In this document: piece after piece, positions 17,355 through 35,202 of the stretch
How positions within the stretch are numbered: the stretch's first letter is position 1
Layout: every line of letters begins with the position of its first letter
From: an uncultured Pirellulaceae bacterium
GTDB taxonomy: Bacteria; Planctomycetota; Planctomycetia; Pirellulales; Pirellulaceae
Assembly: GCA_963975425.1 (NCBI GenBank)
Contig: CAXBGS010000004.1
Span: 525,953-589,952 of the forward strand
Direction: 5' to 3'
DNA: 64,000 bases
Position numbers and translations under genes: made by a program
The notes under the pieces: generated by a model
Told to the model about the DNA's origin: nothing
Seen by the model: only the letters and a program-made list of their open reading frames with translations
Databases searched by the model: none

Positions 17355-20300
17355 TTGAACCGCCTCGCAAATTTACACGTAACCCGTGTGCTGAGCCTCG
17401 CCACCGCTTGGTGGGTGCTGGCGCCGTCGGACGTGTCCGCCCAACTGTCGATGCCAGAGTCCTCGGCGACTGGCAACTATTCGACACCCGCTGGCAGCAG
17501 TACCGTCGCCGCGCCGACACCGGCCGCCGGTCAGCAGCTGATCAAAGAAGCTCGCCAAGCGATGGCCGACCGAGACTTCGTAAAAGCAGTCGACCGCTAT
17601 CGAAAGGTATCGGAGATGTCGAGCAAGGTGACGCAGCTGCGAAGCGACGTCGCCCGCTTGCAAGTCGACTTGCGAGTGGCGGGCATTGATTCGGAATTGT
17701 TGGCCATGCCAAACTACGCGGCATCCCCCAACGCACCGTCGCCCATGCTGCAGCTTCCCGATGTCGCGAACGCGTCACCGATCCAGGCGTCCAGTTCGAG
17801 CGACGTTACCACTCGAAAGCGTGAAGCGCTTCGATTGCTGGCGATCGGTCGAGCCGCGCTCGATCGCGGCGACGCTCAAACCGCTCTCCAAATTGCCAAA
17901 CAAGCTCAAGCGTTAAACGTTCCCGAACAAAACTTTGCTCCGGGCGAACCTCGCGTATGGCAATTCGTGCTAGATGCCGAATCAGCCGCTCGGCGATCGC
18001 CGACCGCGAATTCGGGTGTCAGCCAAGCCGGCGGCATTTCGACCAGTGAAGACCAAGCCGCGATCGCGCAGACACTGTTCAACCTGTCACCTTCGGGCGC
18101 CCCGCTGGGCGGAAATGGCTCGGACATCAAACAGGTCCAAGCCCAAGAGATCATCGCAGAACCGTTGCCGCCGCGACCGTTCAGACAACAAACCCTTGGC
18201 GCGCCGGCCATCACTCAATCGCCGATCGCACAAGAAACGCCCATCAATCCACCTGCTCCCTCAGGCGGAACGACCAGCATGGGCCAGTACTTGTACGAAC
18301 AAGGACTGCAGGCACTCGCGGCCGGTCAAACCGCCGACGCACGCAGCAAATTTGTCGAGGCCTGGCAATACGAATCGCAACTTGACTTGGCAACACGCCG
18401 CCAACTGAAAGACAAGCTGACGCTGTTACAGCCCACTCGTTTACCATCGGCCGGCGGTACCAAGCCGGAATCCGAGATGACGGCAATCGAGAAAGCCCAA
18501 CTGGCTTCGCAAGAAGAAACGCGTCGTTTGTACCGTGAGATCACAACTGAACTCGCCGATTCCAACGAGATCAAAACCACCAAGCCTTTGGATGCACTGG
18601 ATCAATTGAATCGGCTGCGACGCCGCGTCGATGGTTCCACGGTAGACGAAACGTCAAAGCGTTCGCTCGTGGCGATGGTCGACCGAGCTCTCTCGGACCA
18701 AAAACAGTATGTCGAGGCCAATCGGGCTCAAATCGAACTTGATCTGCAAAACGAAGCAATCAAAACCGAATTGGCCACCAATTCATCACGCGAAGCTCGT
18801 ATCGATGAAGAGATTTCAGCTCTTGTCGAAACGTACAACGATTTGATGGACGAACGACGATTCCCCGAAGCGGAAGTGATTGCCAAGAAGGTTTCGGAAC
18901 TGAAACCCGGATCGGAAATCGCCATCAGCATGTTCCACTCCAGCCGGATGGGAACTCGACTGCAACTTGCTGAAGAAATCAGTGCGGCCAAGGAAGACTG
19001 GAACGTCCGGGCCTTTCGCGACATCGAGGCGTCCGCCGTTGGCATGAATCCCGATCGAACCATCGAGTTCGACGACGCAAAAACATGGAACGACAAGTCG
19101 CTGCGACGAATGATGGGCGAAAGCGAAGACACTCATATGAGTGCCGCCGAACGCGACATCCAGCGTCGTTTAGATACCAAAGTCGAAGCCAACTACGACC
19201 AACGCCCGCTGGCCGAGGTGATGGAAGACCTGTCCGCCGTGACCGGTATCCCGATCGTCTTGAACAACCGAGCGATGTCGGCCGTCAAAGTAAATGCCGA
19301 TACGCCGGTGACACTTAAGTTGCCGCAATCAGTATCGCTTGACAGTGCATTGAACTTGATGCTGGACGATCTGGAACTGACCTACATGATCGAAAACGAT
19401 GTGTTGAACATCACCAGTATCGAAGCCAAGCAAAGTAACACCTTCCCCCGCGTGTATCGCGTGACCGACTTGGTCACCCCGATCCCCAATTTCACCAGTT
19501 CATACGAAGACGGTCTGGCCGGTGCACTTCGCGCCGCCTATCAAATGTCCAATCCGCAATCGGATGTGCAGTTGATTCCCGTTTCGGCAACCGACCTGGG
19601 CATGGGAATGGCAAACAGCATGTCGCCGACACAAATGCCGCCGAACATGCTGGGACAGTACAACGGCATGGGCCAGGCCAACTCGTTCGGTCCCGGCAGC
19701 CAATCAAACAGTGGACGAGGGGGCAGCTCGTTCGCAGATTTCCAATCGCTGATTGACCTGATTCAAACGACGGTCGTTCCGGATACCTGGGAAGCCTTGG
19801 GCGGCCCAAGTACGATGTCGGAATACCCACAGAACTTGAGTCTTGTGATCAGCACGACCAGTGACGTGCACGACCAGATCAGCGACCTGCTGGAATCGCT
19901 TCGTCGACTACAGAATCTGCAGATCACGATCGAAGTGCGGTTTATCACGCTGTCCGATACGTTCTTCGAACAAATCGGGGTCGACTTTGACGTGCAGTTT
20001 GATGACAACGTCTCGCAATTGCCCGACGACGACAGCGGACCATCGGTTTCGATCGGATTCGATGGGACCAACGGTGTTCCGACGGCCGACTTGGACATCC
20101 AATTCGATCAAAACAACTTTAACGTCGCGTCGCCATTCGGTACGCCAGACCCAGGATCATTCTCGACCCTCGGTTTTGCAATCCTGAGTGACATCGAAGC
20201 GTTCTTCTTCCTGCAAGCCGCACAGGGCGATAGCCGGACGAACGTGATGCAAGCACCGAAGGTGACTTTGTTTGACGGTCAAATCGCGACGATCAGCGAC

Positions 20301-20897
20301 GTGACGCAGCGTCCCTTTGTGACCAGCATCACGCCGGTCGTGGGTGACTTTGCCGTCGCACAGCAGCCGGTCATCGTGGTGCTCAACGAAGGAACCCAGT
20401 TGAACGTGCAAGGGATCGTCAGCAACGATCGCCGATTCGTCCGCATGACGCTGGTTCCCTTCTTCAGCCAAATCGGTGATGTCGATACCTTCACATTCGA
20501 AGGCAGCCGCACCACCAGCCGCACCAGTCGCAACGAAGAGGACACCAACGGTGACGGTGTCGTCGACGAAAACGATGCGGTCGATGAAGACACCGAACAA
20601 GACGTCATCACCGGTACCACGGTCCAGTTGCCGACGTTCGCATTCACGAACGTTAGCACGACGGTCAGTGTTCCCGATGGCGGTACCATCTTGTTGGGCG
20701 GTATCAAGCGTTTGGCCGAAGGCCGCCAAGAACGCGGCATGCCGATGCTTAGCAAAATCCCCTACCTGAGTCGCTTGTTCCGCAACACGGCCGTTGGTCG
20801 CGATGCACGAAGCTTGATGCTGATGGTCACGCCACGCATCATCATTCAGGAAGAAGAAGAGCTGGCACAAACCGGTTACGAAGCTCCGCCACGCTAG
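17355..20897 (+). CDS. Secretin family outer-membrane channel (GspD/PilQ-like), 1180 aa, with long low-complexity N-terminal region
   Basis: The C-terminal secretin domain reads LQITIEVRFITLSDTFFEQIGVDF...VPDGGTILLGGIKRLAEGRQERGMPMLSKIPYLSRLFRNTAVGRDARSLMLMVTPRIII, matching the conserved secretin core. An upstream N-domain-like segment (RPLAEVMEDLSAVTGIPIVLNNRAMSAVKVNADTPVTLKLPQSVSLDSALNLMLDDLELTYMIENDVLNITSIEAKQ) resembles the secretin N0/STN domain. There is a signal peptide (LSLATAWWVLAPSDVSAQ). It uses a TTG start at 17355, preceded by a perfect Shine-Dalgarno AAGGAG with a 7-nt spacer. Confidence 0.7.
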   Translation: MNRLANLHVTRVLSLATAWWVLAPSDVSAQLSMPESSATGNYSTPAGSSTVAAPTPAAGQQLIKEARQAMADRDFVKAVDRYRKVSEMSSKVTQLRSDVARLQVDLRVAGIDSELLAMPNYAASPNAPSPMLQLPDVANASPIQASSSSDVTTRKREALRLLAIGRAALDRGDAQTALQIAKQAQALNVPEQNFAPGEPRVWQFVLDAESAARRSPTANSGVSQAGGISTSEDQAAIAQTLFNLSPSGAPLGGNGSDIKQVQAQEIIAEPLPPRPFRQQTLGAPAITQSPIAQETPINPPAPSGGTTSMGQYLYEQGLQALAAGQTADARSKFVEAWQYESQLDLATRRQLKDKLTLLQPTRLPSAGGTKPESEMTAIEKAQLASQEETRRLYREITTELADSNEIKTTKPLDALDQLNRLRRRVDGSTVDETSKRSLVAMVDRALSDQKQYVEANRAQIELDLQNEAIKTELATNSSREARIDEEISALVETYNDLMDERRFPEAEVIAKKVSELKPGSEIAISMFHSSRMGTRLQLAEEISAAKEDWNVRAFRDIEASAVGMNPDRTIEFDDAKTWNDKSLRRMMGESEDTHMSAAERDIQRRLDTKVEANYDQRPLAEVMEDLSAVTGIPIVLNNRAMSAVKVNADTPVTLKLPQSVSLDSALNLMLDDLELTYMIENDVLNITSIEAKQSNTFPRVYRVTDLVTPIPNFTSSYEDGLAGALRAAYQMSNPQSDVQLIPVSATDLGMGMANSMSPTQMPPNMLGQYNGMGQANSFGPGSQSNSGRGGSSFADFQSLIDLIQTTVVPDTWEALGGPSTMSEYPQNLSLVISTTSDVHDQISDLLESLRRLQNLQITIEVRFITLSDTFFEQIGVDFDVQFDDNVSQLPDDDSGPSVSIGFDGTNGVPTADLDIQFDQNNFNVASPFGTPDPGSFSTLGFAILSDIEAFFFLQAAQGDSRTNVMQAPKVTLFDGQIATISDVTQRPFVTSITPVVGDFAVAQQPVIVVLNEGTQLNVQGIVSNDRRFVRMTLVPFFSQIGDVDTFTFEGSRTTSRTSRNEEDTNGDGVVDENDAVDEDTEQDVITGTTVQLPTFAFTNVSTTVSVPDGGTILLGGIKRLAEGRQERGMPMLSKIPYLSRLFRNTAVGRDARSLMLMVTPRIIIQEEEELAQTGYEAPPR

Positions 20898-22707: not shown

Positions 22708-23622
22708 TCAAGTTTCCTCGTCATCGGCAAGTCGTGTCAGATAGTTTCCCATCAAGTGCGACGGCATGCCTTGGCGAATCTCGCCCCAGATCAAATCAAC
22801 CACGTCGGAACTTAGTGTCGCGGTCGCAGCCTTAGCGGCGGCCGTGGTCGCGACCGTTTGGATCACGTTGGCCGCCTTTTGCATATTGGACTGCCCCACC
22901 ACGATTTCCTGTTCGCAGTGGTTGTAGTTGTTGTGCAGCAAACTCATCATCGGCAATCGCGGTACCAGATCACCCGCGTCGACATAGCGAAATACCTTGC
23001 TCGGAAATTCACGGGCAAATGCCGCCGCGGCGGCTTGGTTGCCGATCATCGGTGCGCCGAACGTACATACTTGATGTACCGGAATGAAGTTTTGATGCAA
23101 CCGCCACGCGAACAGCAATGCCAATGCGCCGCCCAGACTATGCCCAGTCACCCACACAGGCCGTTCGCTTGCGGCAAATCGTTGATCCACGCTTGCGTAA
23201 AGAGGTGCCCAGATTTCATCAAGCGCTTCGAGGAATCCGCGATGGAAACGGGCACCAACACCCGCCGCTGCGAAGTCGGTTCCGATACGCCCCGACGGAA
23301 TGACCAAGAAATTTCTCGCATTGGTCAACAGCCAATCCTTGACGCCGTCCAAACTTGTCGGTGATTGTGATCCGCGAAACGCGACAACAATACAGTCGTC
23401 GTTTTCGCCGACGTAGGCTTGCGTGTTGTCGACGCTGATCAATTCCGCATCCAGATCTAACAGTTCGCGAAACTTGGGTCGACCTGTTGGTTCAGACAGG
23501 TACGCCAATTCGCACGCGGTTGCCAGGTAGTGCGCGTGATGACGGGTGTGGCTCGTCCGAGGATCCAAGTGCACCACCGAACCCCGTTTGGCAGGTTTCG
23601 ACGAAGCGGATGAGTCGGTCAT
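22708..23622 (-). CDS. Lipase class 3 family alpha/beta hydrolase
   Basis: The nucleophile elbow VTGHSLGGALALLFAW (GHSLGG) and upstream VVAFRGSQS (Lipase_3 oxyanion region) are diagnostic for fungal-type class 3 lipases. Confidence 0.75.
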   Translation of the reverse strand: MTDSSASSKPAKRGSVVHLDPRTSHTRHHAHYLATACELAYLSEPTGRPKFRELLDLDAELISVDNTQAYVGENDDCIVVAFRGSQSPTSLDGVKDWLLTNARNFLVIPSGRIGTDFAAAGVGARFHRGFLEALDEIWAPLYASVDQRFAASERPVWVTGHSLGGALALLFAWRLHQNFIPVHQVCTFGAPMIGNQAAAAAFAREFPSKVFRYVDAGDLVPRLPMMSLLHNNYNHCEQEIVVGQSNMQKAANVIQTVATTAAAKAATATLSSDVVDLIWGEIRQGMPSHLMGNYLTRLADDEET

Positions 23623-25508: not shown

Positions 25509-28500
25509 TCACGAGTCAGTTTTCTTCGCCGACTGAAACGTCGCTTCGATCGATTCATAGTTTTCTAACATTGCGGTCAACTGCGCCTGCAATTTTTCCA
25601 GATCGCGTCCGTTGTCGATCGATTCGTTTAAGATCGGACGCAACCATTCCTGCATCAAGTGGAATTGGCCTTTCACCAAATCCGCCAGCACACGAGGCAC
25701 CTTGTGCTGGACAAAGACTTTTTGGTCAGGGGGCGCCAGTTGCTGTTGTCGTGCCTGCAACTCGGCGATCTGGCTGAGTTGTTTGCTGGTCGATTCCAGC
25801 GTTTCGGATAACCGTCCGCCCGATTCGGCCAAGCTCTTGCGAAGCGAGTTGACTCGTTCGTCCATCCGTTGCTCGGATTCTTCGTTGCCCACGGCAATTG
25901 CACGCGAAATCACTTGCCGGATCGATTCGAGGCCATCTCGCATCGATGCCAGTTGACGCATCAATTGGCCTGCCTGATCATCACTATCCATCCCCGACAT
26001 GCGAACGTTTTCGACGTAAGCATATTTGATCGCGTCCCAACGTTCCTTTTCCTCCGCGGACAAGATGCCCATCAACTCTTTGAACTTCAGCACGTTCGCT
26101 TCGTTGTCGGTCGTCAGCGTCTGGGCGTCTTGTTCATAGTTGCTGATGATCAGTGCTTGCAGTTCCGCGTCGTTCATCACGCCCGCCACACGTTCGGCGA
26201 TGCGATTCATATTTCGATAGCTGCCCTGCAGCTTGAACGGCGGCTCGGTACGGTAAGCATCGGCCTGTGCCGCGCTGCGGATGTAAGCACGATTGACCTT
26301 CAACACAACGTCACGCACTCGCAAAAGCTTGCGAAGAATTTCAAACATCTCGCGAACCTGATCGCTAGACAGATTGCTCTGCAATTCGATTCCGTCCAGC
26401 GTGTCTCGCTGAGCGGCGTTGATCAGCATCCGAGCGTCATCGGGAGTCGCGGTCGACAGCGGGGCCAATGCAGGGTTACTCGTCAAACAGTTTTCCAAGT
26501 AGCTCATTTCGAAAGCGTCGGAAGCGTCCCCGATAATCTCGCCCAGGTTGTAAACATCGGCACGGTTGGAAAGCATGTCCGGAATCTGGAACCGTTCGCC
26601 GCTTTCGGTATAAGGGTTTCCGGCCATCACGACGGCTACTCGACGTCCGCGCAGGTCGTACGTTCGGGTCCGCCCGTTGTGAACGCCTTCGATCTTTCGT
26701 GTCGCATCGCAGAGTGAAATGAATTTCTGCAACAATTCGGGATTGGTGTGTTGGATGTCATCGAGATACAGCATCACGTTATCGCCCATCTCGAGCGCCA
26801 AATTCAAACGTTCAATCTCCTCGCGAGCGGCGGCATTGGGCGCTTCGGCGGGATCCAGCGACGTGACACCGTGGCCAATCGCGGGACCATTGATTTTCAT
26901 GAACACGATGCCTAACCGATTCGCGACATATTCCATCAACGTCGTTTTCCCGTATCCCGGCGGCGAAATCAGCAGCAACAGCCCCATGCGGTCGGTTCGC
27001 TTGTCGGCACCGGCAGCGCCCATCTGCTTTGCCAGATTGTCACCGATCAACGGCAAGTAGACTTCGTCAAGCAAGCGGTTCCGCACAAAACTTGTCAGCA
27101 CACGTGGCTTGAACTCCTCAAGCCGCATGTCTTCGCGAGAAGATTCGACGATTCTGGTTTTCGCTTCATGCAGCGCGTGAAAGCGTGGCACGACGTCGTC
27201 CAAGTAATGTCGGACGCGAGCAAGCAGTTCGTGGTAATGCAACGACATCGCACCTCGGGTCAGCCGCGAGTGATTGCCGACGAGGCCTTCCAAGTGGGTT
27301 GCAACGTCAACCTTTTGGACCGATCCGGTCGCGGGGCCGCCTGTCATGATCAGCCAAGCCAACTCGTCGCCGTATCCCGCGGCAGGATCAATCTCGTCTT
27401 CGTCGCCGTGAGTCTGCAAGAACGCATCGGCCCAGTTCCTGGCCAGCACATAGCTGCGCAGCGGATCCGATTCGTTCGACTTAAGTGCGGCCGTCAACAA
27501 CTTGTCGCGTTCGCTGGTCGGAATTGCGGCGACGAACTGATCGTACAGGTTGGCCGCGCGTCCACTGGTCACCGCTTTGCGTGGCGACTGGACCAATTGA
27601 TCAAACAAGTAATCAGCGATTCGAATTGGGTGAACGCTTTTTGAAAACAATGGCGACCACTGGTCGGCGTCTGATTGAGCTAGACTTTCCAGCCTCTCGC
27701 GAAATTCGACCGCGGGCCGTGCCTGCGGATACGCTTTGGCGAGTTTTGCAAAACCGGCGATCCAATCCGTCATCGCCTTGCGATTCTTGGGATCCAACAA
27801 TTTAGAGAACCACAATAACGCCGCGGCACGCACCGAAGGCGAGTGGGCCAGCAGACCAATCGACTGATCGATTGCGAGCAAGCGACTCAAGATCAATGCG
27901 GCATCAACGTCATGGACACCCTTGGCATAACCTTCGTTGAATCGATCGGCGACTTTCGCCTGAATCCAGGCGGGGCTGATGTCCGACGGTTTCACCGGTG
28001 GGTCTTGCTGACGCAGTCGAAGGAAGAGTTCAACTGCAAGGTACTCGCAGCGATAGACATCGGAATTTTCACTGACAAGTTCTTGGTTCCACAGATCCTT
28101 TGCCGCGACCAATGCCGGGTCACTAAGTGGTTCGAAGTATTGTGTGCCGGTAAGGTGCAAACACATTTCGCCACCGCGCAAGACCGTTGTCAAATCGAGC
28201 GGTTGCGTGTTGACGGCGAATCGTTTTTCGCCCAAGCGAATAATGTCGCCGCCGTCTTCGAATAAGTCTTGCCGATCCTTTTGCTGTCGCGTGGCGTCCT
28301 CGCGAATCGTCTTCAAGCGACTTTGCAGATCCTCCACTCGGACCGCATCGTCCAGTTGTTGCAATTGCGCGATGATGTCGCGAACTTTTTCAACCATCAG
28401 GTCGCCGGCAAAGTACGCGGCGATTTCATCGGTCGATTCCATCGCGCCCGCTCGCGTACTGATCCCCTTGAGAATACGATCGGCGGCCGACGCGAGCGTC

Positions 28501-30767
28501 TCGGCGCGACGATTGCGTTTCTCAACCAGCTGCACTTTCCGCGATTCAAACGCCGCATAGACGTCTTCGCGGCGCTGGGTTAACTGGACCACAAACTCGT
28601 CGAATTCGGCAAATCGGCCCTCGAGTTCTTCCAGTTGAACCATCACCTTGGTCAGATAGTCATCGCATTTCTCTGGAGAATCGCAGACGTCCAAGTATCC
28701 GGACGTGGTTTGCTGCAGCAATTTCAGCTGCGACGCGAATTCCGCCTTTCCTTCGACCGACAGCAACTCGCTTGAGCGTGCCTTCAAGCCGCTGCGAACC
28801 CGATTGAGCGACGCGAACACGTCTCCAATGGCATCGATGATCTCGGTTCGTTTCGTTGCATCATCGATCCGCAGATTGCTAACCGTTTCAGTCAGCAACT
28901 CTAATTGGCCAGAGGCTTGGTCGATTTCATCAGACAGTTCTTTTGCCTCGGCGACGCTGGATACCGCGGCAACTTTTTCTTCGGCCTGGCCAACTCGCTG
29001 GACATACGGGTCGAGAGCCCCCGGCGTCAACAAAAAATCGACGCACCGACGACTTAGCCGTTCGGATCGATCGGCGGTTTCTGTCTCAAGCGACTCGACG
29101 ATCGTTTCGTCAACATAGCGGAGTTCACGCAACCCGATCGCGTGCCCTCGTTGTTCTCGCAGTCGCCCGAGAAAATCGACGAAGTCATCAATCGATCCGA
29201 ACCGGCTGCGTTCGATTTGCTTGACAAGTTCGTCAACGGCTTGTTGGACTTCCTGCGTACGCTGCTGTGTGTCGCGTCGCACACGAACGACTTTGTCGAA
29301 CTCTTCAACCGCTGCGGAGGCCGTCTCTCGAATCTTTCCCAGTGGTTCAGAAAGCCGAAACGTTTCGGTCTTGTCGATCCAAAAGTAGCTATCCAGAATG
29401 TCGGATGCTTTCTTGACCAGATCGACGTACAGCCCTTCGTAGCTGTCTTCTTTGTCAATCAGTTGCAGCAACTCGCTGCATTCGGCCATGCCTCGAACGA
29501 TCTCTTTGTTACCGATTTTGAACAACAGCGAATCCGACTGGCTTTCGGTGGCCTGATCGTCGCTGGTGAATGGCGTTTGCCAAATTTGAACGGCATGATG
29601 TTTTTGCGGATCGGTCTGTGTTTGAAAGCAGACCATTTCGCCGCGGTCAAAAAAAGTCTGCCCGTGACAGATCAGCGGGGTCTCGACGGTTTGGCGGATG
29701 ATGTTGTAACGCAGCTGGACATAGGTGCCGGACTCGCTGTTGTAGAACAAATACAGATAGTCCTCTCCGTTGGGCGCAGCGACGGTGCGTTGGTATCGCA
29801 TGTTGCTAAGCCCGTGATCGAACCGTTTAAACTCGCCCGTTTGCAGGTAGTAACCGCCGGGAAAGACCAACCCCTGATCGCCGGGCAGCATCACGCAACA
29901 TTGGCCAATTTCATCTAAGCGAATCGCTCGCTGGATTTTCCCATTGAAAACGATGTAGCGGGTTTGTTCTTCTTGATATGGCTTGATTTTCATCAACACC
30001 AGATTGCCGACGATGGCGTAATGAATCTCAGCATCGTCAAGCGTTTGGTCGGCGTGGTCGACGGGCTCGTCATAGATGCCTTCGCCCGATTCGGTGTTAT
30101 TTTCGACCTTGATGGTCAGATCGCCGCCAACAGTTTCGACAAAAACGCGGTCGTCAATTGCGATATGCGGATGTGTGCCGTAATGATGCTGATCGCGTGT
30201 GGTTCGTGTCCAGCGAAATTCGTGTTGGCTGGGTTCACGGACTTCGTGTTCGCTGCGGTTGTCGACGTATTGGATCGAATCAGGTGCGACCCGCCATTTG
30301 AATGCCTTGATATCTCGTGAAGTCTTGCCGACTTGGAACACCATGTACAACATCGGTCCGGCGCGAAAAAAACGCGAGAACCTTGTGTCTTTATAAAATC
30401 GATACAGTTCGCCAAAATCGTTTGCGAAGCGCTCGTCACCGATCAGTCCCAGCGAATCGGCGTGGAACTGGTTATTTTCTAGCCGATAGACCGAAAAGAC
30501 GTCTTCTAATTCGATTTCAGTTTTCAGCCCAAACTGGACGTTGTATCCGAACAGAAAACGGTCACCGACCGACACCAAGTCTCGCGGGACACAATTATGC
30601 TCCGTCGTGACGCGTTCGCTAGTGATCAGTGTCGTCTCGATGTTGCCAAAGACTTCACCACGCGCGTCGTTCAACTGCGACAACCGGGTACGCAATTCGC
30701 CCGATGCATCCCGCAAGCGATTGCGGAGCACTTCGTAGGTACCGGCGGCGAGTTGAGAATCAGTCAT
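25509..30767 (-). CDS. Giant (1752 aa) AAA+ ATPase-domain protein of unknown function; single AAA_5/MoxR/dynein-like module near residues 1255-1400 flanked by long coiled-coil regions
   Basis: Walker A is MGLLLLISPPGYGKTTLMEYV (about residue 1265). Walker B is NVMLYLDDIQHT (about 1334). A sensor-like VAVVMAGNPY follows. This GPPGxGKT / hydrophobic-DD / xxGNP pattern is that of AAA_5-type ATPases. The N-terminal 1250 aa have no motif I recognise. Residues roughly 480-800 and the last 350 aa are heptad-rich and charged. It is co-oriented with flotillin, 170 bp downstream of it. Confidence 0.75.
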   Translation of the reverse strand: MTDSQLAAGTYEVLRNRLRDASGELRTRLSQLNDARGEVFGNIETTLITSERVTTEHNCVPRDLVSVGDRFLFGYNVQFGLKTEIELEDVFSVYRLENNQFHADSLGLIGDERFANDFGELYRFYKDTRFSRFFRAGPMLYMVFQVGKTSRDIKAFKWRVAPDSIQYVDNRSEHEVREPSQHEFRWTRTTRDQHHYGTHPHIAIDDRVFVETVGGDLTIKVENNTESGEGIYDEPVDHADQTLDDAEIHYAIVGNLVLMKIKPYQEEQTRYIVFNGKIQRAIRLDEIGQCCVMLPGDQGLVFPGGYYLQTGEFKRFDHGLSNMRYQRTVAAPNGEDYLYLFYNSESGTYVQLRYNIIRQTVETPLICHGQTFFDRGEMVCFQTQTDPQKHHAVQIWQTPFTSDDQATESQSDSLLFKIGNKEIVRGMAECSELLQLIDKEDSYEGLYVDLVKKASDILDSYFWIDKTETFRLSEPLGKIRETASAAVEEFDKVVRVRRDTQQRTQEVQQAVDELVKQIERSRFGSIDDFVDFLGRLREQRGHAIGLRELRYVDETIVESLETETADRSERLSRRCVDFLLTPGALDPYVQRVGQAEEKVAAVSSVAEAKELSDEIDQASGQLELLTETVSNLRIDDATKRTEIIDAIGDVFASLNRVRSGLKARSSELLSVEGKAEFASQLKLLQQTTSGYLDVCDSPEKCDDYLTKVMVQLEELEGRFAEFDEFVVQLTQRREDVYAAFESRKVQLVEKRNRRAETLASAADRILKGISTRAGAMESTDEIAAYFAGDLMVEKVRDIIAQLQQLDDAVRVEDLQSRLKTIREDATRQQKDRQDLFEDGGDIIRLGEKRFAVNTQPLDLTTVLRGGEMCLHLTGTQYFEPLSDPALVAAKDLWNQELVSENSDVYRCEYLAVELFLRLRQQDPPVKPSDISPAWIQAKVADRFNEGYAKGVHDVDAALILSRLLAIDQSIGLLAHSPSVRAAALLWFSKLLDPKNRKAMTDWIAGFAKLAKAYPQARPAVEFRERLESLAQSDADQWSPLFSKSVHPIRIADYLFDQLVQSPRKAVTSGRAANLYDQFVAAIPTSERDKLLTAALKSNESDPLRSYVLARNWADAFLQTHGDEDEIDPAAGYGDELAWLIMTGGPATGSVQKVDVATHLEGLVGNHSRLTRGAMSLHYHELLARVRHYLDDVVPRFHALHEAKTRIVESSREDMRLEEFKPRVLTSFVRNRLLDEVYLPLIGDNLAKQMGAAGADKRTDRMGLLLLISPPGYGKTTLMEYVANRLGIVFMKINGPAIGHGVTSLDPAEAPNAAAREEIERLNLALEMGDNVMLYLDDIQHTNPELLQKFISLCDATRKIEGVHNGRTRTYDLRGRRVAVVMAGNPYTESGERFQIPDMLSNRADVYNLGEIIGDASDAFEMSYLENCLTSNPALAPLSTATPDDARMLINAAQRDTLDGIELQSNLSSDQVREMFEILRKLLRVRDVVLKVNRAYIRSAAQADAYRTEPPFKLQGSYRNMNRIAERVAGVMNDAELQALIISNYEQDAQTLTTDNEANVLKFKELMGILSAEEKERWDAIKYAYVENVRMSGMDSDDQAGQLMRQLASMRDGLESIRQVISRAIAVGNEESEQRMDERVNSLRKSLAESGGRLSETLESTSKQLSQIAELQARQQQLAPPDQKVFVQHKVPRVLADLVKGQFHLMQEWLRPILNESIDNGRDLEKLQAQLTAMLENYESIEATFQSAKKTDS

Positions 30768-30937: not shown

Positions 30938-33064
30938 CTACGCTTGTTTTCCGTTACCGGATGTCGCCGACGTGGTCAAAACACTAGCGGCTTTCTTGTC
31001 GGCGATTCTGGCGGTACCGGCCATGCCCAGCAAACTGGTCAGTTGCGTTCGCATGTCATCGGTCTTGGCCAGCCCCATCATTTTGGCGATCAATGCCGCG
31101 ATCGACAAATCCTTGACGCCGTCGGTATCTAAATTGAACTGCGACATCAACGATTTCATTTGATCGGTAAAGTACTCTGCGTTCCCGTCAAAGAACGTGT
31201 CTTTGATATCTGTCGCAACTTTACTGTTGTAGACGAATCGGTCGATCGCCTTTCCGCCCTTGACGGCCGATGTGATCTGCTCGAAGAACTCACCATCGCC
31301 ACCGACGATATCAATTCGGGCGGCCTTGAGCGCTTCCCCAACCACTCCCGCTTGGCTTTCGGCAATTCCTCGCTGCGCATCGATGGCTGCGATTTCGACA
31401 TCCTTTTCTTTGTTCAGCTGCAGCTTGAATTCTTCGTGATCCTTGCCGACGCTGTCGAGGACCTTCATCGCTTCGGCCTTTTCGGTAATTCCGGTGGCCT
31501 CGCTGCGGTACTTTTCCAGGTCGACGTTGGCTTCGGCTAATCCTTGTTTCTCGACTGCGGAAGCTTTCGCCTCGATTCCCTTGGCTTCGGCGACGGCTTT
31601 CTTTTCCAGGACGGCCGCTTCGGCGAGACCCTCTTTTTCCAAGCTGGCCGCTTTGGCTTCCTGAACGGTCGCTTCGGCCAAGCCGGATGCCGCTCGTGTT
31701 GCGGCTTCCGCTTCGGCCAGCATCTTGGCTGCAGCGGTTTCTTTCTCCGCGGCATCACGTTTGGCCTCGGCTTCGATACGAACCTTTTCGGCCATCAACT
31801 CGCTGGATTCCTTTTCGGCTTGCGCGAGCTTGGTTTGGCGAATCAGCTCTTCTTGAGCTCTCATTTCGGCGGCCGTCACCTGAACGGTCTTCAAACGTTC
31901 CGCGGCGGCAACTTCTTCGGTGTCCTTGATTCGTTCTTGTTCTTCCACGACGGCGCGTTCGACAGCGACACGTTCGCGGATGACTTCTTGGATGTTGCGT
32001 TTTTCGACTTCGATCGCTTTTTCCTTTTCGACGTCAGCCACACCGACCACGCGTAACCTTTCGGTCATTTCCAAATCGCGGTCTCGGTTGACGCGTTCCA
32101 ATTCGACCGCATCGGTCTTTTCTTTGTTTCGTTGGGCGACCAAGATTTGACGTAACTTGTTCTCCTCTGCCACGCCGATTTCCTCTTCGGTCACAATGCG
32201 GGCGCGTTCGGATTCCAGACGCTGTTCCTCTTGAACCTTGGCGGCGGAGGCTTTTTCCCGAGCAGTGATTTCGGCTATCTCGCGTTGCTGTTTTTCGACC
32301 GCTTCGACTCGTTGGCGTTCAAGCGCGAGGATGGTTTCCTCCGCTTCGACATCCTGTTTCTTTAACGTCTTTTCTTTGTCGCGGGTGAACTGATTCTCCT
32401 TGACCTTTTCTTGCGATGTCAGATCCGTGATTTTCTTGATGCCCTCGGCGTCCAAGATATTGGTCGGGCTAAGCAGGTTGAGCGGGGTTTGTTCCAGGTA
32501 GTCGATTGCGGCATCATCCAATCGATAACCGTTCAAGTCGGTGCCGATGACTTTCAGGATTTCATCTTTGAACTTGTCGCGTTGATCATACAGGTCGACA
32601 AAATCGAACTGCTTGCCAACCGTCTTCAGTGCTTCACTGAATTTTGCATCAAACAATTCGCGCAGCGTATCGATCTGGCTGCAGCGTTTGGCCCCGATCG
32701 ACTGAGCGACTTCTTTCTGCTCTTCCGGCGACTTATCAACGCGAACGAAGAAGGCAACTTTGATGTCGGCACGGATATTGTCTTTGCAAATCAATCCTTC
32801 AGAGCCCTGACGATGAATTTCGAAACTCTTTAGCGTCAAGTCCATGAACTCGTACTGATGAATCATCGGTACGACCCATAACCCGTCGCCCGATGCGACA
32901 CGAAGCCCACCTTGTCCGCTTCGGACAATCGCCACATCAGGTCCGACTTTGATGAAGAACTTTTTGAACGCGATCGCAACGCTGATAATGAACAGCAGCG
33001 CGAATCCGATCACGAGCAACGCGGCGTCGGTGCCCCAATTATTGGTAAAAAACTGTGCGATCAT
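30938..33064 (-). CDS. Flotillin family protein (SPFH/Band-7 domain, FloT/YqiK-like) with N-terminal TM and long EA-rich coiled-coil C-terminus
   Basis: The N-terminal helix is LLVIGFALLFIISVAIAF. The SPFH core reads GPDVAIVRSGQGGLRVASGDGLWVVPMIHQYEFMDLTLKSFEIHRQG...IKVAFFVRV. It has extended Glu/Ala/Lys heptad repeats and a C-terminal flotillin-type tail. Its ATG overlaps the upstream gene stop (ATGA at 33061-33064). Confidence 0.85.
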   Translation of the reverse strand: MIAQFFTNNWGTDAALLVIGFALLFIISVAIAFKKFFIKVGPDVAIVRSGQGGLRVASGDGLWVVPMIHQYEFMDLTLKSFEIHRQGSEGLICKDNIRADIKVAFFVRVDKSPEEQKEVAQSIGAKRCSQIDTLRELFDAKFSEALKTVGKQFDFVDLYDQRDKFKDEILKVIGTDLNGYRLDDAAIDYLEQTPLNLLSPTNILDAEGIKKITDLTSQEKVKENQFTRDKEKTLKKQDVEAEETILALERQRVEAVEKQQREIAEITAREKASAAKVQEEQRLESERARIVTEEEIGVAEENKLRQILVAQRNKEKTDAVELERVNRDRDLEMTERLRVVGVADVEKEKAIEVEKRNIQEVIRERVAVERAVVEEQERIKDTEEVAAAERLKTVQVTAAEMRAQEELIRQTKLAQAEKESSELMAEKVRIEAEAKRDAAEKETAAAKMLAEAEAATRAASGLAEATVQEAKAASLEKEGLAEAAVLEKKAVAEAKGIEAKASAVEKQGLAEANVDLEKYRSEATGITEKAEAMKVLDSVGKDHEEFKLQLNKEKDVEIAAIDAQRGIAESQAGVVGEALKAARIDIVGGDGEFFEQITSAVKGGKAIDRFVYNSKVATDIKDTFFDGNAEYFTDQMKSLMSQFNLDTDGVKDLSIAALIAKMMGLAKTDDMRTQLTSLLGMAGTARIADKKAASVLTTSATSGNGKQA

Positions 33065-33741
33065 TTCGAGTCCTCTTCAGATGCAGCGGTGACTTTGTAA
33101 ACTCGCCGTTCGTTATCAAATGCGATGATGCGTACCAACGATCCTTTGCTGATCGTTTCGCCGTCGGTGCGTATATTCAGCAACAAGGGCGCGGCATCGG
33201 TTGGGAATTTGGCCTGGCCGAACGAATCGGACACCTCTCCCGTGGAAACCGCGCAGGTCTTCCCAATAAGGTTGCTCGGATCGTATGTCGGCGCCGGCTC
33301 AAATGCCCGATTCAGGGGGCCTGTAAGAACCTTGGTCACCAAAATCGATATAACCCCGTTTCGAAGCACAAGCAGCACGCTGGGGATCAACGTCGGCGCA
33401 TATCGGTGGTGATCGAATCCGTACCACAGCACGTAGGAGATTCCCCAAAACGCGATGGTAAAGATTGACATCCAAAGCACCAAAGGCAGTCGCTGCAGGT
33501 TCAACCAACGCAGCGTCGCCGCACCGGCGCCCCCGAACAGGTCGCTTTGAATGTCCGCCGTGGCCGATGGAACATCGACATCCGCATCCAAGTCCGCGTC
33601 GAGATCGATTCCCAGGTCCAGGTCGATCAGCCCCAACAACGCAACGAAGGCATACACGATCAGCAGACAAACCAAGACGGACGCCGGCCATAATGGCCCA
33701 ACGAACATCCGCTCGAGTAACTGCACGAAAGATTCAGACAC
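33061..33741 (-). CDS. NfeD-like / YqiJ-family membrane protein (flotillin-associated OB-fold protein)
   Basis: It has N-terminal hydrophobic helices, an acidic DLDLGIDLDADLDADVDV segment and further TM helices. The C-terminal soluble beta-rich domain (GKTCAVSTGEVSDSFGQAKF...GSLVRIIAFDNERRVYKV) fits the NfeD OB-fold. Its position immediately upstream of flotillin, translationally coupled to it, mirrors the E. coli yqiJ-yqiK and B. subtilis nfeD-floT arrangements. Confidence 0.6.
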   Translation of the reverse strand: MSESFVQLLERMFVGPLWPASVLVCLLIVYAFVALLGLIDLDLGIDLDADLDADVDVPSATADIQSDLFGGAGAATLRWLNLQRLPLVLWMSIFTIAFWGISYVLWYGFDHHRYAPTLIPSVLLVLRNGVISILVTKVLTGPLNRAFEPAPTYDPSNLIGKTCAVSTGEVSDSFGQAKFPTDAAPLLLNIRTDGETISKGSLVRIIAFDNERRVYKVTAASEEDSK

Positions 33742-34014: not shown

Positions 34015-35202
34015 CTAGTGGATGATGTCCAGCTGGCTGGAGGGCAGTTCACCTGGGTCGGACGTCGCTGCACTGATGCGCCCGCGATCGGCGAGCGTCT
34101 GCAAGTCCAGCAATCCAATCAAGCGTTCCGATGAATCGACAACCGGTACGGTGCGATTTCCTCGACCGGCGGTCAGCACGACCGATTCGATATCATCGTC
34201 CAGCTTGACCGTGACAACACCATGGTCGGCAAGCTGGCCGGCGGTGCTATTGCCGTCTTCACCTTTTTCGATCGCCTTGGCAACATCCGCTAATCGCAGG
34301 ACACCGACAACGCTTCCGCTGATTGAAATGACCGGCAATTCGCTGACGGTCACGCGACTCCAGATGCGGCGAATCTCCGAGAGCGGAGTATCCATCAAGA
34401 TCGATGGCGGATCATGAATCATCGATCGGTAAATGCTCGATCCGCGGACCGATTCGGTCAAGTCAACTTGTCGGGCTTCGGCCACGCCGGCATAAGCGAT
34501 GAACAGCGCGATCAACAGCGTGATGGGATTGCCGACATTCAGCGCAAACAAAGCCATCATTCCGGCACAAACCAATCCGACACGCGAAGCGATATAGGTC
34601 GCTTTGCCGTAACTGGTGACCATCGCCAGCAGACTGCGAAAGACGCGGCCGCCGTCCATCGGGAACGCCGGAACCATGTTAAAAACGACCAATGCGATGT
34701 TGGCCATCAACATGATGAATAGAAAACCGACCAGCGACGGCGTCTGCAGCGGATCGACATCATTCAAGCTGCCGAATAAGTCCATCACCGGCTGCCAAGC
34801 GAACACGTACATCCCCACGACCAATAGCGAACCGATCACGACATTGACGGCCGGCCCAGCGACGGCGACGACCAACTCGTGAAAAGGAATCCGCGGCATC
34901 CGTTCGAGCCTGGCGACGCCGCCGATCGGAAACAGCGTGATATCGACGGTGGAAATGCCATACATTCGTGCCGCCATCGCGTGCCCGTACTCGTGCAGCG
35001 TCACACAGGAGAAAATGCCTAACGCGACCGCGACCGAAAAGATCATGCCCGGTGTGCCATACTCGCGAGCCTGGTACGCCACAAAACCCAACAACAGCAG
35101 GAATGTCCAATGAACGTATAGTCCGATCCCCAAGTAGGTTCCCAGCTTCAAACGTTTATCGAACACATGTCTTCCGTCAAAAGTGGACTCCCGTCGCGGC
35201 AC
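34015..35202 (-). CDS. Site-2 protease family (peptidase M50) with C-terminal CBS domain pair
   Basis: HEYGHAMAARMYG is the HExxH zinc motif in a TM helix. MVPAFPMDGGRV is the second metal-ligand motif (xxDG). It is a multi-TM protein. A C-terminal CBS-like tandem reads VTVSELPVISISGSVVGVLRLADV...VPVVDSSERLIGLLDLQTL. GTG start at 35202. Confidence 0.8.
   Translation of the reverse strand: MPRRESTFDGRHVFDKRLKLGTYLGIGLYVHWTFLLLLGFVAYQAREYGTPGMIFSVAVALGIFSCVTLHEYGHAMAARMYGISTVDITLFPIGGVARLERMPRIPFHELVVAVAGPAVNVVIGSLLVVGMYVFAWQPVMDLFGSLNDVDPLQTPSLVGFLFIMLMANIALVVFNMVPAFPMDGGRVFRSLLAMVTSYGKATYIASRVGLVCAGMMALFALNVGNPITLLIALFIAYAGVAEARQVDLTESVRGSSIYRSMIHDPPSILMDTPLSEIRRIWSRVTVSELPVISISGSVVGVLRLADVAKAIEKGEDGNSTAGQLADHGVVTVKLDDDIESVVLTAGRGNRTVPVVDSSERLIGLLDLQTLADRGRISAATSDPGELPSSQLDIIH

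Follow-up and report, generated by a model that had tools for sequence, protein, structure and literature searches.

What does a protein of 1752 amino acids (aa) with a single AAA+ module, encoded next to a flotillin gene and named 'DNA repair ATPase' by NCBI, do in the cell? The gene lies in a 64,000-nucleotide (nt) stretch of DNA from an uncultured Pirellulaceae bacterium (assembly GCA_963975425.1, contig CAXBGS010000004.1, positions 525,953 to 589,952), which we call the window, and had been picked out for its unusual architecture in an earlier sequence-only reading made without database searches. We find that the protein is an ordinary member of the widespread DUF3686/DUF7902 family, and that this family is linked, near-obligately and across phyla, to a flotillin and an NfeD-like membrane protein encoded upstream. 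It is very probable that the ATPase works functionally with this pair. The three genes of the window are:

25509..30767, minus strand: giant AAA+ ATPase, 1752 aa.
30938..33064, minus strand: YqiK-type flotillin (SPFH/band-7 plus coiled coil), 708 aa; hhalign to Escherichia coli YqiK, probability 100%, E 1e-40.
33061..33741, minus strand: YqiJ/YuaF-type (NfeD-like) protein with three transmembrane segments, 226 aa; Pfam YqiJ_N and hhalign to E. coli YqiJ.

Direct translation bears out the open reading frame (ORF) of the giant ATPase, which starts at the first possible ATG. A script run on the translation, with coordinates re-checked, places Walker A (SPPGYGKTT) at aa 1268-1276, Walker B (LYLDDIQH) at 1333-1340 and the GNP motif at 1383-1385, in agreement with the sequence-only reading, which had put all three near residues 1265-1400. 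An identical protein (P0001) is found on a 1.97-Mb Tara Oceans scaffold, and the closest relatives are full-length proteins of other Pirellulaceae (Novipirellula, Stieleria and Rubripirellula) at 66-84% identity, which marks the window as DNA of a marine planctomycete. Full-length homologues extend from 84% down to 27% identity, and an ORF of this size with one AAA+ module is far beyond chance. A Kyte-Doolittle (KD) scan found no transmembrane segment (maximum KD19 1.58), and the protein is thus predicted to be soluble. No paralogue was found within the window by script search.

Two Pfam families cover much of the N-terminal part of the protein, each above its gathering threshold: DUF3686 (PF12458) at aa 24-462 (nt 29382-30698; E 4.6e-194, 645.5 bits against a cut-off of 25) and DUF7902 (PF25472) at aa 584-666 (nt 28770-29018; E 7e-28, 97.1 bits against a cut-off of 26). 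The view that about 1250 N-terminal residues are unknown sequence, with no motif to be placed outside the AAA+ module, therefore does not hold. NCBIfam gave no family-level match, and PDB searches with the single protein and with the family profile returned P-loop similarity only, to Rix7, p97 and RuvB. In a literature search we found no experimental work on the giant ATPase and no paper naming DUF3686, PF12458, DUF7902, PF25472 or IPR020958. Profile searches thus placed the protein in no characterised family whose role is independent of flotillin, and the DNA-repair label sits on a domain of unknown function.

To gauge family size, aa 1-1200 were searched against 1.84 billion cluster representatives at E <= 1e-3. 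This matched 1420 clusters at 50% identity, many of them with proteins of 1550-1930 aa that are collinear with the query down to 27-30% identity. An alignment of 44 diverse full-length representatives of 1550-1930 aa (alignment A2; mean column identity 38%) runs end to end, C-terminal AAA+ module included, down to 32% identity. At least 585 species carry the giant ATPase in a scan of one genome per species. The number of clusters, the collinear members and the species count together make a giant protein with a single AAA+ module the norm of this family. The architecture is atypical, as the sequence-only reading had it, when set against textbook AAA+ proteins, but not within its own large and conserved family.

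For the neighbourhood we kept 80 loci, from Planctomycetota, Bacteroidota, Verrucomicrobiota, Kiritimatiellota, Desulfobacterota and Clostridia. By tblastn, a flotillin lies upstream on the same strand at 64 of the 80, with about 50% identity even between phyla; where at least 3.5 kb of DNA was available upstream, this was true for 57 out of 60. ORF clustering placed a YqiJ-like gene at 51 of the same 60 loci (52 cluster members overall). Unbiased clustering of all flanking ORFs yielded only three widely shared clusters, namely the ATPase, the flotillin and the YqiJ-like protein, and their order was always yqiJ-flotillin-ATPase. Identity to the window ATPase tracks taxonomy: it is 66-84% in Pirellulaceae, falls to about 50-55% in the rest of the Planctomycetota and is 44-51% outside that phylum. 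At 15-19 Bacteroidota loci, a divergent XRE-type regulator, CesT_Tir_1 and PspA_IM30 (E 2.5e-40) are found directly upstream, and the gammaproteobacterium Agaribacterium carries a divergently transcribed DUF2170-PspA pair. Three loci have DUF4178, DUF350 and a 7TM spermine synthase downstream.

In the window, the stop of the yqiJ-like gene overlaps the flotillin start (ATGA, 33061-33064), which suggests translational coupling of the two. A G+C-rich spacer of 170 nt separates the flotillin from the ATPase; promoter and terminator signals in the window did not rise above those in shuffled sequence. The flotillin has one N-terminal hydrophobic segment (KD scan) and went undetected by Pfam Band_7/Flot, by NCBIfam and by a single-sequence PDB search; Band_7 matches only 2 of 27 flotillin orthologues, and the family profile gave a single weak match in the PDB, to the QmcA coiled coil. 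In length it exceeds YqiK by about 150 aa, and the conserved stretch of 270 residues at its C-terminus did not align to YqiK. A strongly conserved part of this region, roughly aa 520-700, is a candidate docking site for the ATPase. The YqiJ-like protein matches E. coli YqiJ with a probability of 97% (hhalign, E 4e-11) and has three hydrophobic segments (KD scan); its family profile found no match in the PDB.

The family and its link to flotillin have already been published from comparative genomics, and within the family the window gene is ordinary. Ravi et al. 2024 (mSystems 9:e00847-23, PMC11237479) described, by comparative genomics only, an operon of flotillin, YqiJ/YuaF and an ATPase with beta-propeller, coiled coil and AAA+ domain, for which they proposed ATP-dependent sub-membrane dynamics. 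The three genes, their order and strand and the architecture of the ATPase are the same here. The full layout of that operon (cHTH-protease, CesT/Tir, PspA, YqiJ, flotillin, ATPase) is matched by our Bacteroidota loci, whose gene order equals that of the Dokdonia donghaensis example (ANH61663.1) in their Table S3. The same authors describe abbreviated operons of flotillin and YqiJ/YuaF, sometimes with this ATPase, as more widely distributed; since tblastn found neither PspA nor CesT within the 64-kb window, the CesT/Tir-PspA dyad is missing and the window holds only the abbreviated form. For the ATPase, they report neither a structure nor an AAA+ clade, domain boundaries or a census.

Several loci depart from the common layout. 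Three, from Desulfobacteraceae, Cytophagaceae and Bacteroidia (L031, L033 and L041), encode a full-length ATPase but have neither a flotillin nor a yqiJ gene in their 10-kb flanks. The genes that do lie there (for a TPR protein, a 7TMR-DISM/SpoIIE protein, DUF2147, Uma2 and TonB_C) bear no relation to each other, and no alternative conserved partner was found among them. Two proteins of about 1040 aa (P0309, at L084:8001-11123, and P0310) have DUF3686 and DUF7902 without an AAA+ module. L084, the only AAA-less locus examined, adjoins proteins secreted by the type IX secretion system (T9SS) and an integrase. These short forms could be relics left by truncation, or adaptors that stand alone. Extra ORFs that fall in the ATPase cluster, one of 671 aa downstream at L016 and others of about 155 aa on the opposite strand at L035 and L061, may represent fragments, partial duplications or small genes of AAA-like type. 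At many Bacteroidota loci small ORFs fill a gap of 0.5-2.4 kb between flotillin and ATPase. One of these, L019:818-1258, matches Pfam DUF559 (endonuclease-like) and clusters with ORFs of four other loci, two in the same gap (L044:9347-9904 and L045:9527-9949) and two with the copy downstream of the ATPase (L061 and L064); the remaining insertions are unrelated. Downstream of the Agaribacterium module (L083:14567-19090) lie genes for VasI, AbiJ_NTD4, deaminase and FRG-domain proteins, a neighbourhood of defence-like or conflict-like character.

To characterise the architecture of the ATPase, two AlphaFold2 (AF2) models were built on alignments of 60-62 sequences, covering aa 1-900 (predicted local distance difference test, pLDDT, 86) and aa 830-1752 (pLDDT 84). 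The predicted order is an N-terminal helix, a beta-propeller-like domain, a helical arm, a small beta domain, a helical domain, the AAA+ core, a lid and a tail. Up to the motor, the parts are:

aa 3-40, nt 30648..30761, minus strand: long N-terminal helix (AF2 model 1, alignment A2, heptad scan), with invariant R17 and R36.
aa 46-397, nt 29577..30632, minus strand: all-beta, beta-propeller-like domain, the DUF3686 core (AF2 pLDDT ~90).
aa 414-835, nt 28263..29528, minus strand: long helical arm of spectrin-like or three-helix-bundle type, which holds DUF7902.
aa 842-880, nt 28128..28244, minus strand: small conserved beta domain (both AF2 models, alignments A2 and A3), with invariant G846, F850 and T875.
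aa 886-1215, nt 27123..28112, minus strand: all-helical middle domain (AF2 model 2, pLDDT ~90).

In model 1 the domain at aa 46-397 is all-beta, with about six groups of four strands, which agrees with the earlier description of the first 480 residues or so as beta-rich and globular. Foldseek matched it to propellers of six or seven blades, including the kelch protein KLHDC3, CyRPA, PON1, WD40 proteins and the clathrin terminal domain, with E ~1e-5 and probability 1.0; template-modelling (TM) scores were low because the query model is multi-domain. A crude heptad scan put aa 595-682 and 741-838 above the 99th percentile of shuffles. Of the two regions earlier called heptad-rich, residues 480-800 thus correspond to the long helices of the arm, whereas most of 1400-1750 does not qualify, since aa 1400-1590 form folded AAA+ and lid structure. 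The modelled combination of a propeller with a helical arm is typical of adaptors. The middle domain is the least conserved of the folded regions (mean majority fraction 0.37); a second, degenerate AAA domain was considered here and rejected, as the model is all-helical in this region.

The motor and its motifs are as follows:

aa ~1230-1450, nt 26418..27080, minus strand: AAA+ alpha/beta core (AF2 model 2, alignment A2, Foldseek).
aa 1268-1276, nt 26940-26966, minus strand: Walker A, invariant across the family (A2).
aa 1333-1340, nt 26748-26771, minus strand: Walker B LYLDDIQH, with DD in place of DE.
aa 1358-1371, nt 26655-26696, minus strand: pre-sensor-1 beta-hairpin, between alpha3 and beta4 (AF2 model 2).
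aa 1383-1385, nt 26613-26621, minus strand: sensor-1 GNP, with N1384 at the end of beta4.
R1402, nt 26562-26564, minus strand: Arg-finger candidate, invariant, just before beta5.

Model 2 contains a single five-stranded P-loop sheet (aa ~1264-1407), consistent with the single AAA+ unit that the sequence-only reading had placed in the C-terminal third, behind a beta-rich domain and long helices. Invariant positions in A2 comprise Walker A, D1336-D1337-x-Q-H, GNPY 1383-1386, R1402, R1506, QGSYR 1514-1518 and several N-terminal residues. Assignment of the core to a clade was less direct. Foldseek returned RuvB, NorQ, CbbQ, MCM and ClpA (E ~1e-6 to 1e-5), the best target-normalised TM scores, 0.55-0.62, being those of the MoxR proteins NorQ and CbbQ. 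Pfam AAA_5 spans the domain at 21.0 bits, below its cut-off of 22, although many homologues have a precomputed AAA_5 match. In single-sequence hhalign comparisons the AAA+ region matched E. coli RavA with a probability of 18% and E. coli RuvB with 95.6%, the latter over only 75 columns from Walker A to Walker B. The predicted model shows no helix-2 insert, beta2 and alpha2 being joined by a conserved 18-residue loop without a hairpin, and ORF clustering found no VWA gene among the conserved neighbours. The AAA_5 label used in the sequence-only reading is therefore not borne out: MoxR membership is not established, and the modelled hairpin would place the core in the pre-sensor-1-hairpin superclade. 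Classical AAA proteins of the Vps4/p97/FtsH type were considered and rejected, because PF00004 scores 33.1 against a cut-off of 21.2 over profile positions 1-38 of 131 only, which is the P-loop, with no full-domain match including the second region of homology.

Behind the core lie two further regions:

aa 1451-1590, nt 25998..26417, minus strand: lid and C-terminal helical bundle (AF2 pLDDT 80-95; conservation 0.58).
aa 1591-1752, nt 25512..25997, minus strand: helical, coiled-coil-like tail (pLDDT 50-60).

The lid holds the invariant R1506 and QGSYR 1514-1518 as candidate sensor-2 residues, and aa 1400-1590 as a whole are folded in the model with majority fractions of 0.58-0.74. In contrast, gaps make up 41% of the tail, its majority fraction is 0.18, and among the 44 representatives it measures between 17 and 238 aa. 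Alignments with Bacteroidota and Clostridia homologues stop at about residue 1620, and the forms of ~1620 aa lack the tail, which is thus an appendage specific to certain lineages. The 350-aa coiled-coil tail first proposed for residues 1400-1750 accordingly shrinks to about 160 aa, and the very long C-terminal arms imagined for the protein are replaced by a conserved helical arm that lies N-terminal to the ATPase.

The genes that flank the module in the window are ordinary (FKBP, M50 peptidase, lipase). A site-2-protease-type membrane protease with Peptidase_M50 and CBS domains (34015-35202, minus strand) is encoded immediately ahead of the yqiJ-like gene; other loci do not keep it next to the module, and its adjacency is probably coincidental. 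A few kb downstream of the module are a class-3 lipase (22708-23622, minus strand) and a 1180-aa secretin-domain protein with TPR and FecR_C-like parts (17355-20897, plus strand), neither of them conserved with it.

What, then, could the ATPase do for its partners? We give an even chance to its being a cytoplasmic, ATP-driven remodeller of flotillin/NfeD assemblies, one part of a three-gene membrane module for membrane maintenance. The flotillin and its NfeD partner would form an oligomeric SPFH assembly on the cytoplasmic side of the inner membrane. The ATPase would oligomerise through its single AAA+ module, given the pre-sensor-1 hairpin and the invariant arginine at the Arg-finger position; this arginine makes ring formation, already suggested in the sequence-only reading, plausible and supports inter-subunit catalysis. 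Physical interaction would run through the N-terminal propeller and helical arm, docking on the flotillin assembly or on proteins held there. The substrate would be the assembly itself or its contents, and the direction of the reaction could be either way, with ATP used to assemble, open, disassemble or otherwise remodel it during membrane maintenance or envelope stress. In some phyla this remodelling may be coordinated with PspA. A sharper version is more doubtful and is offered tentatively: the ATPase as the missing energy source of bacterial flotillin biology, a ring-forming AAA+ machine, its propeller-tipped helical arms gripping an SPFH cage with NfeD inside and opening or disassembling it on ATP hydrolysis.

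Several observations weigh against a flotillin remodeller. In every A2 member the catalytic Glu of Walker B is replaced by Asp (DD, never DE), such that robust hydrolysis is not assured and may be slow. On inspection of the sequence, the loops that line the pore have no aromatic residue of the kind that threading unfoldases typically carry, and the basic pre-sensor-1 hairpin with its RuvB-like P-loop region would suit a nucleic-acid substrate too. The ATPase occurs without a flotillin within 10 kb at the three loci noted above (L031, L033 and L041), the AAA-less DUF3686 and DUF7902 proteins exist without a flotillin neighbour (P0309 at L084), and E. coli YqiJK works without any such ATPase.

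Among other explanations, it is possible, if unlikely, that flotillin and NfeD are only a platform and that the ATPase is a chaperone or extractase for other membrane or sub-membrane proteins gathered there, after the model of the MoxR-type ATPases RavA, NorQ and CbbQ or of FtsH inside HflK/C. The fold similarity to NorQ and CbbQ (TM ~0.6), the near-threshold AAA_5 score with its precomputed matches in many homologues, and the propeller, a common client- or peptide-binding module, all fit this idea, and chaperone-like assembly roles were proposed by Ravi et al. (PMC11237479). Neighbourhood clustering, however, offers no conserved fourth gene as a client, no VWA partner and no protease; the match to RavA stays at 18% probability, and a flotillin kept at about 50% identity across phyla beside the ATPase suggests a direct, specific partnership. 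Rather improbable, in our estimate, is a Vps4-like role in which flotillin recruits the ATPase to damaged membrane and the true substrate is the polymer of PspA, the bacterial ESCRT-III. PspA does lie in the same cluster at 19 Bacteroidota loci and divergently in Agaribacterium, and Ravi et al. (PMC11237479) discuss the Vps4/ESCRT-III precedent for PspA-linked AAA+ ATPases. Yet the module carries no PspA in Planctomycetota, Verrucomicrobiota, Clostridia and other groups, nor does the whole 64-kb window, while flotillin is only rarely missing. In the ATPase no MIT-like domain was recognised, and its core has a pre-sensor-1 hairpin, unlike that of the classical-clade Vps4.

A part in conflict with phages, where a giant NTPase and membrane effectors would trigger abortive infection at the membrane, seems very unlikely. 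It could draw on the AbiJ_NTD4, deaminase and FRG genes near the module at L083, on DUF559 and Uma2 nuclease-like ORFs inserted in or adjacent to Bacteroidota loci, on an XRE plus protease-type regulator, and on the wide spread across phyla at about 50% identity. Against PADLOC-DB 2.0, however, the best match was IetA (E 0.0023 over 29 P-loop residues), with none for the flotillin or the YqiJ-like protein. Neither library scans nor sequence inspection turned up a recognised toxin domain in the three core genes, be it a nuclease, a pore-former or another type, the window flanks are of the ordinary kind described above, and the fall of identity in step with taxonomy suggests a largely vertical, housekeeping-like gene. 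As for the database name, a RuvB- or SMC-like ATPase acting on DNA can claim the 75-column hhalign match to RuvB, RuvB and MCM among the Foldseek matches, and the basic hairpin. Set against these, the NCBIfam/TIGRFAM RuvB equivalogs score 23.9 bits with a cut-off of 282 and 21.2 with a cut-off of 299, no ruvA lies near the ATPase in the window, no DNA-binding, nuclease or RuvA-like partner is present, and the invariant neighbours are two membrane proteins. With no paper on the family found in the literature search behind a name that is attached to a domain of unknown function, we reject DNA repair as the main explanation and regard it as having hardly any chance of being right.

For bacterial flotillin (SPFH) assemblies, no dedicated ATPase is known that would build, open or recycle them. 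The DUF3686 family is the best candidate, and a strong one on genomic grounds: large, apparently soluble proteins with a highly conserved motor and near-obligate flotillin/NfeD linkage in at least six phyla, sometimes with PspA encoded alongside. If the cage-opening version of the remodeller were true, the ATPase would be to flotillin what Vps4 is to ESCRT-III, which would explain turnover of the assemblies and their coupling to PspA-mediated membrane repair. Once the activity of the ATPase is shown, flotillin function could be approached directly, and a misleading 'DNA repair ATPase' annotation that has spread over thousands of genomes would be corrected.

The module can be compared with four known systems. 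The two genes ahead of the ATPase encode homologues of YqiJ and YqiK and, like E. coli YqiJ-YqiK and B. subtilis YuaF-FloT, follow the operon logic of NfeD then SPFH gene described for that type (Hinderhofer et al. 2009, PMC2636767). The yqiK gene of E. coli K-12 is not followed by an ATPase of this kind, and the window flotillin exceeds YqiK by the extension noted above. In fold, the AAA+ core overlaps best with the MoxR family (TM 0.55-0.62 for NorQ and CbbQ), although the giant ATPase is 5-6 times larger. Its stretch from sensor-1 to the Arg finger, GNPYTESGxxFxIPDMLxNR, appears to resemble the MoxR pattern NPxExxGxxxLPxAxxDR, and RavA, another MoxR protein, has extra domains that bind a large oligomeric partner. 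With Vps4 and ESCRT-III the analogy is functional, an AAA+ ring that recycles a membrane-bound polymer, and PspA occurs in the ATPase cluster of some phyla. Vps4, a classical-clade protein, has no pre-sensor-1 hairpin, whereas the giant ATPase has one, lacks a recognised MIT domain and does not have PspA as a constant partner. In FtsH-HflK/C, an AAA+ machine sits inside an SPFH cage. FtsH is a membrane-anchored AAA protease of the classical clade, while the giant ATPase is predicted to be soluble and has no protease domain but a pre-sensor-1 hairpin, a propeller and an arm. Both systems pair an SPFH-family membrane assembly with an AAA+ ATPase, and FtsH-HflK/C sets the precedent for an SPFH scaffold that regulates or houses an ATP-driven machine.

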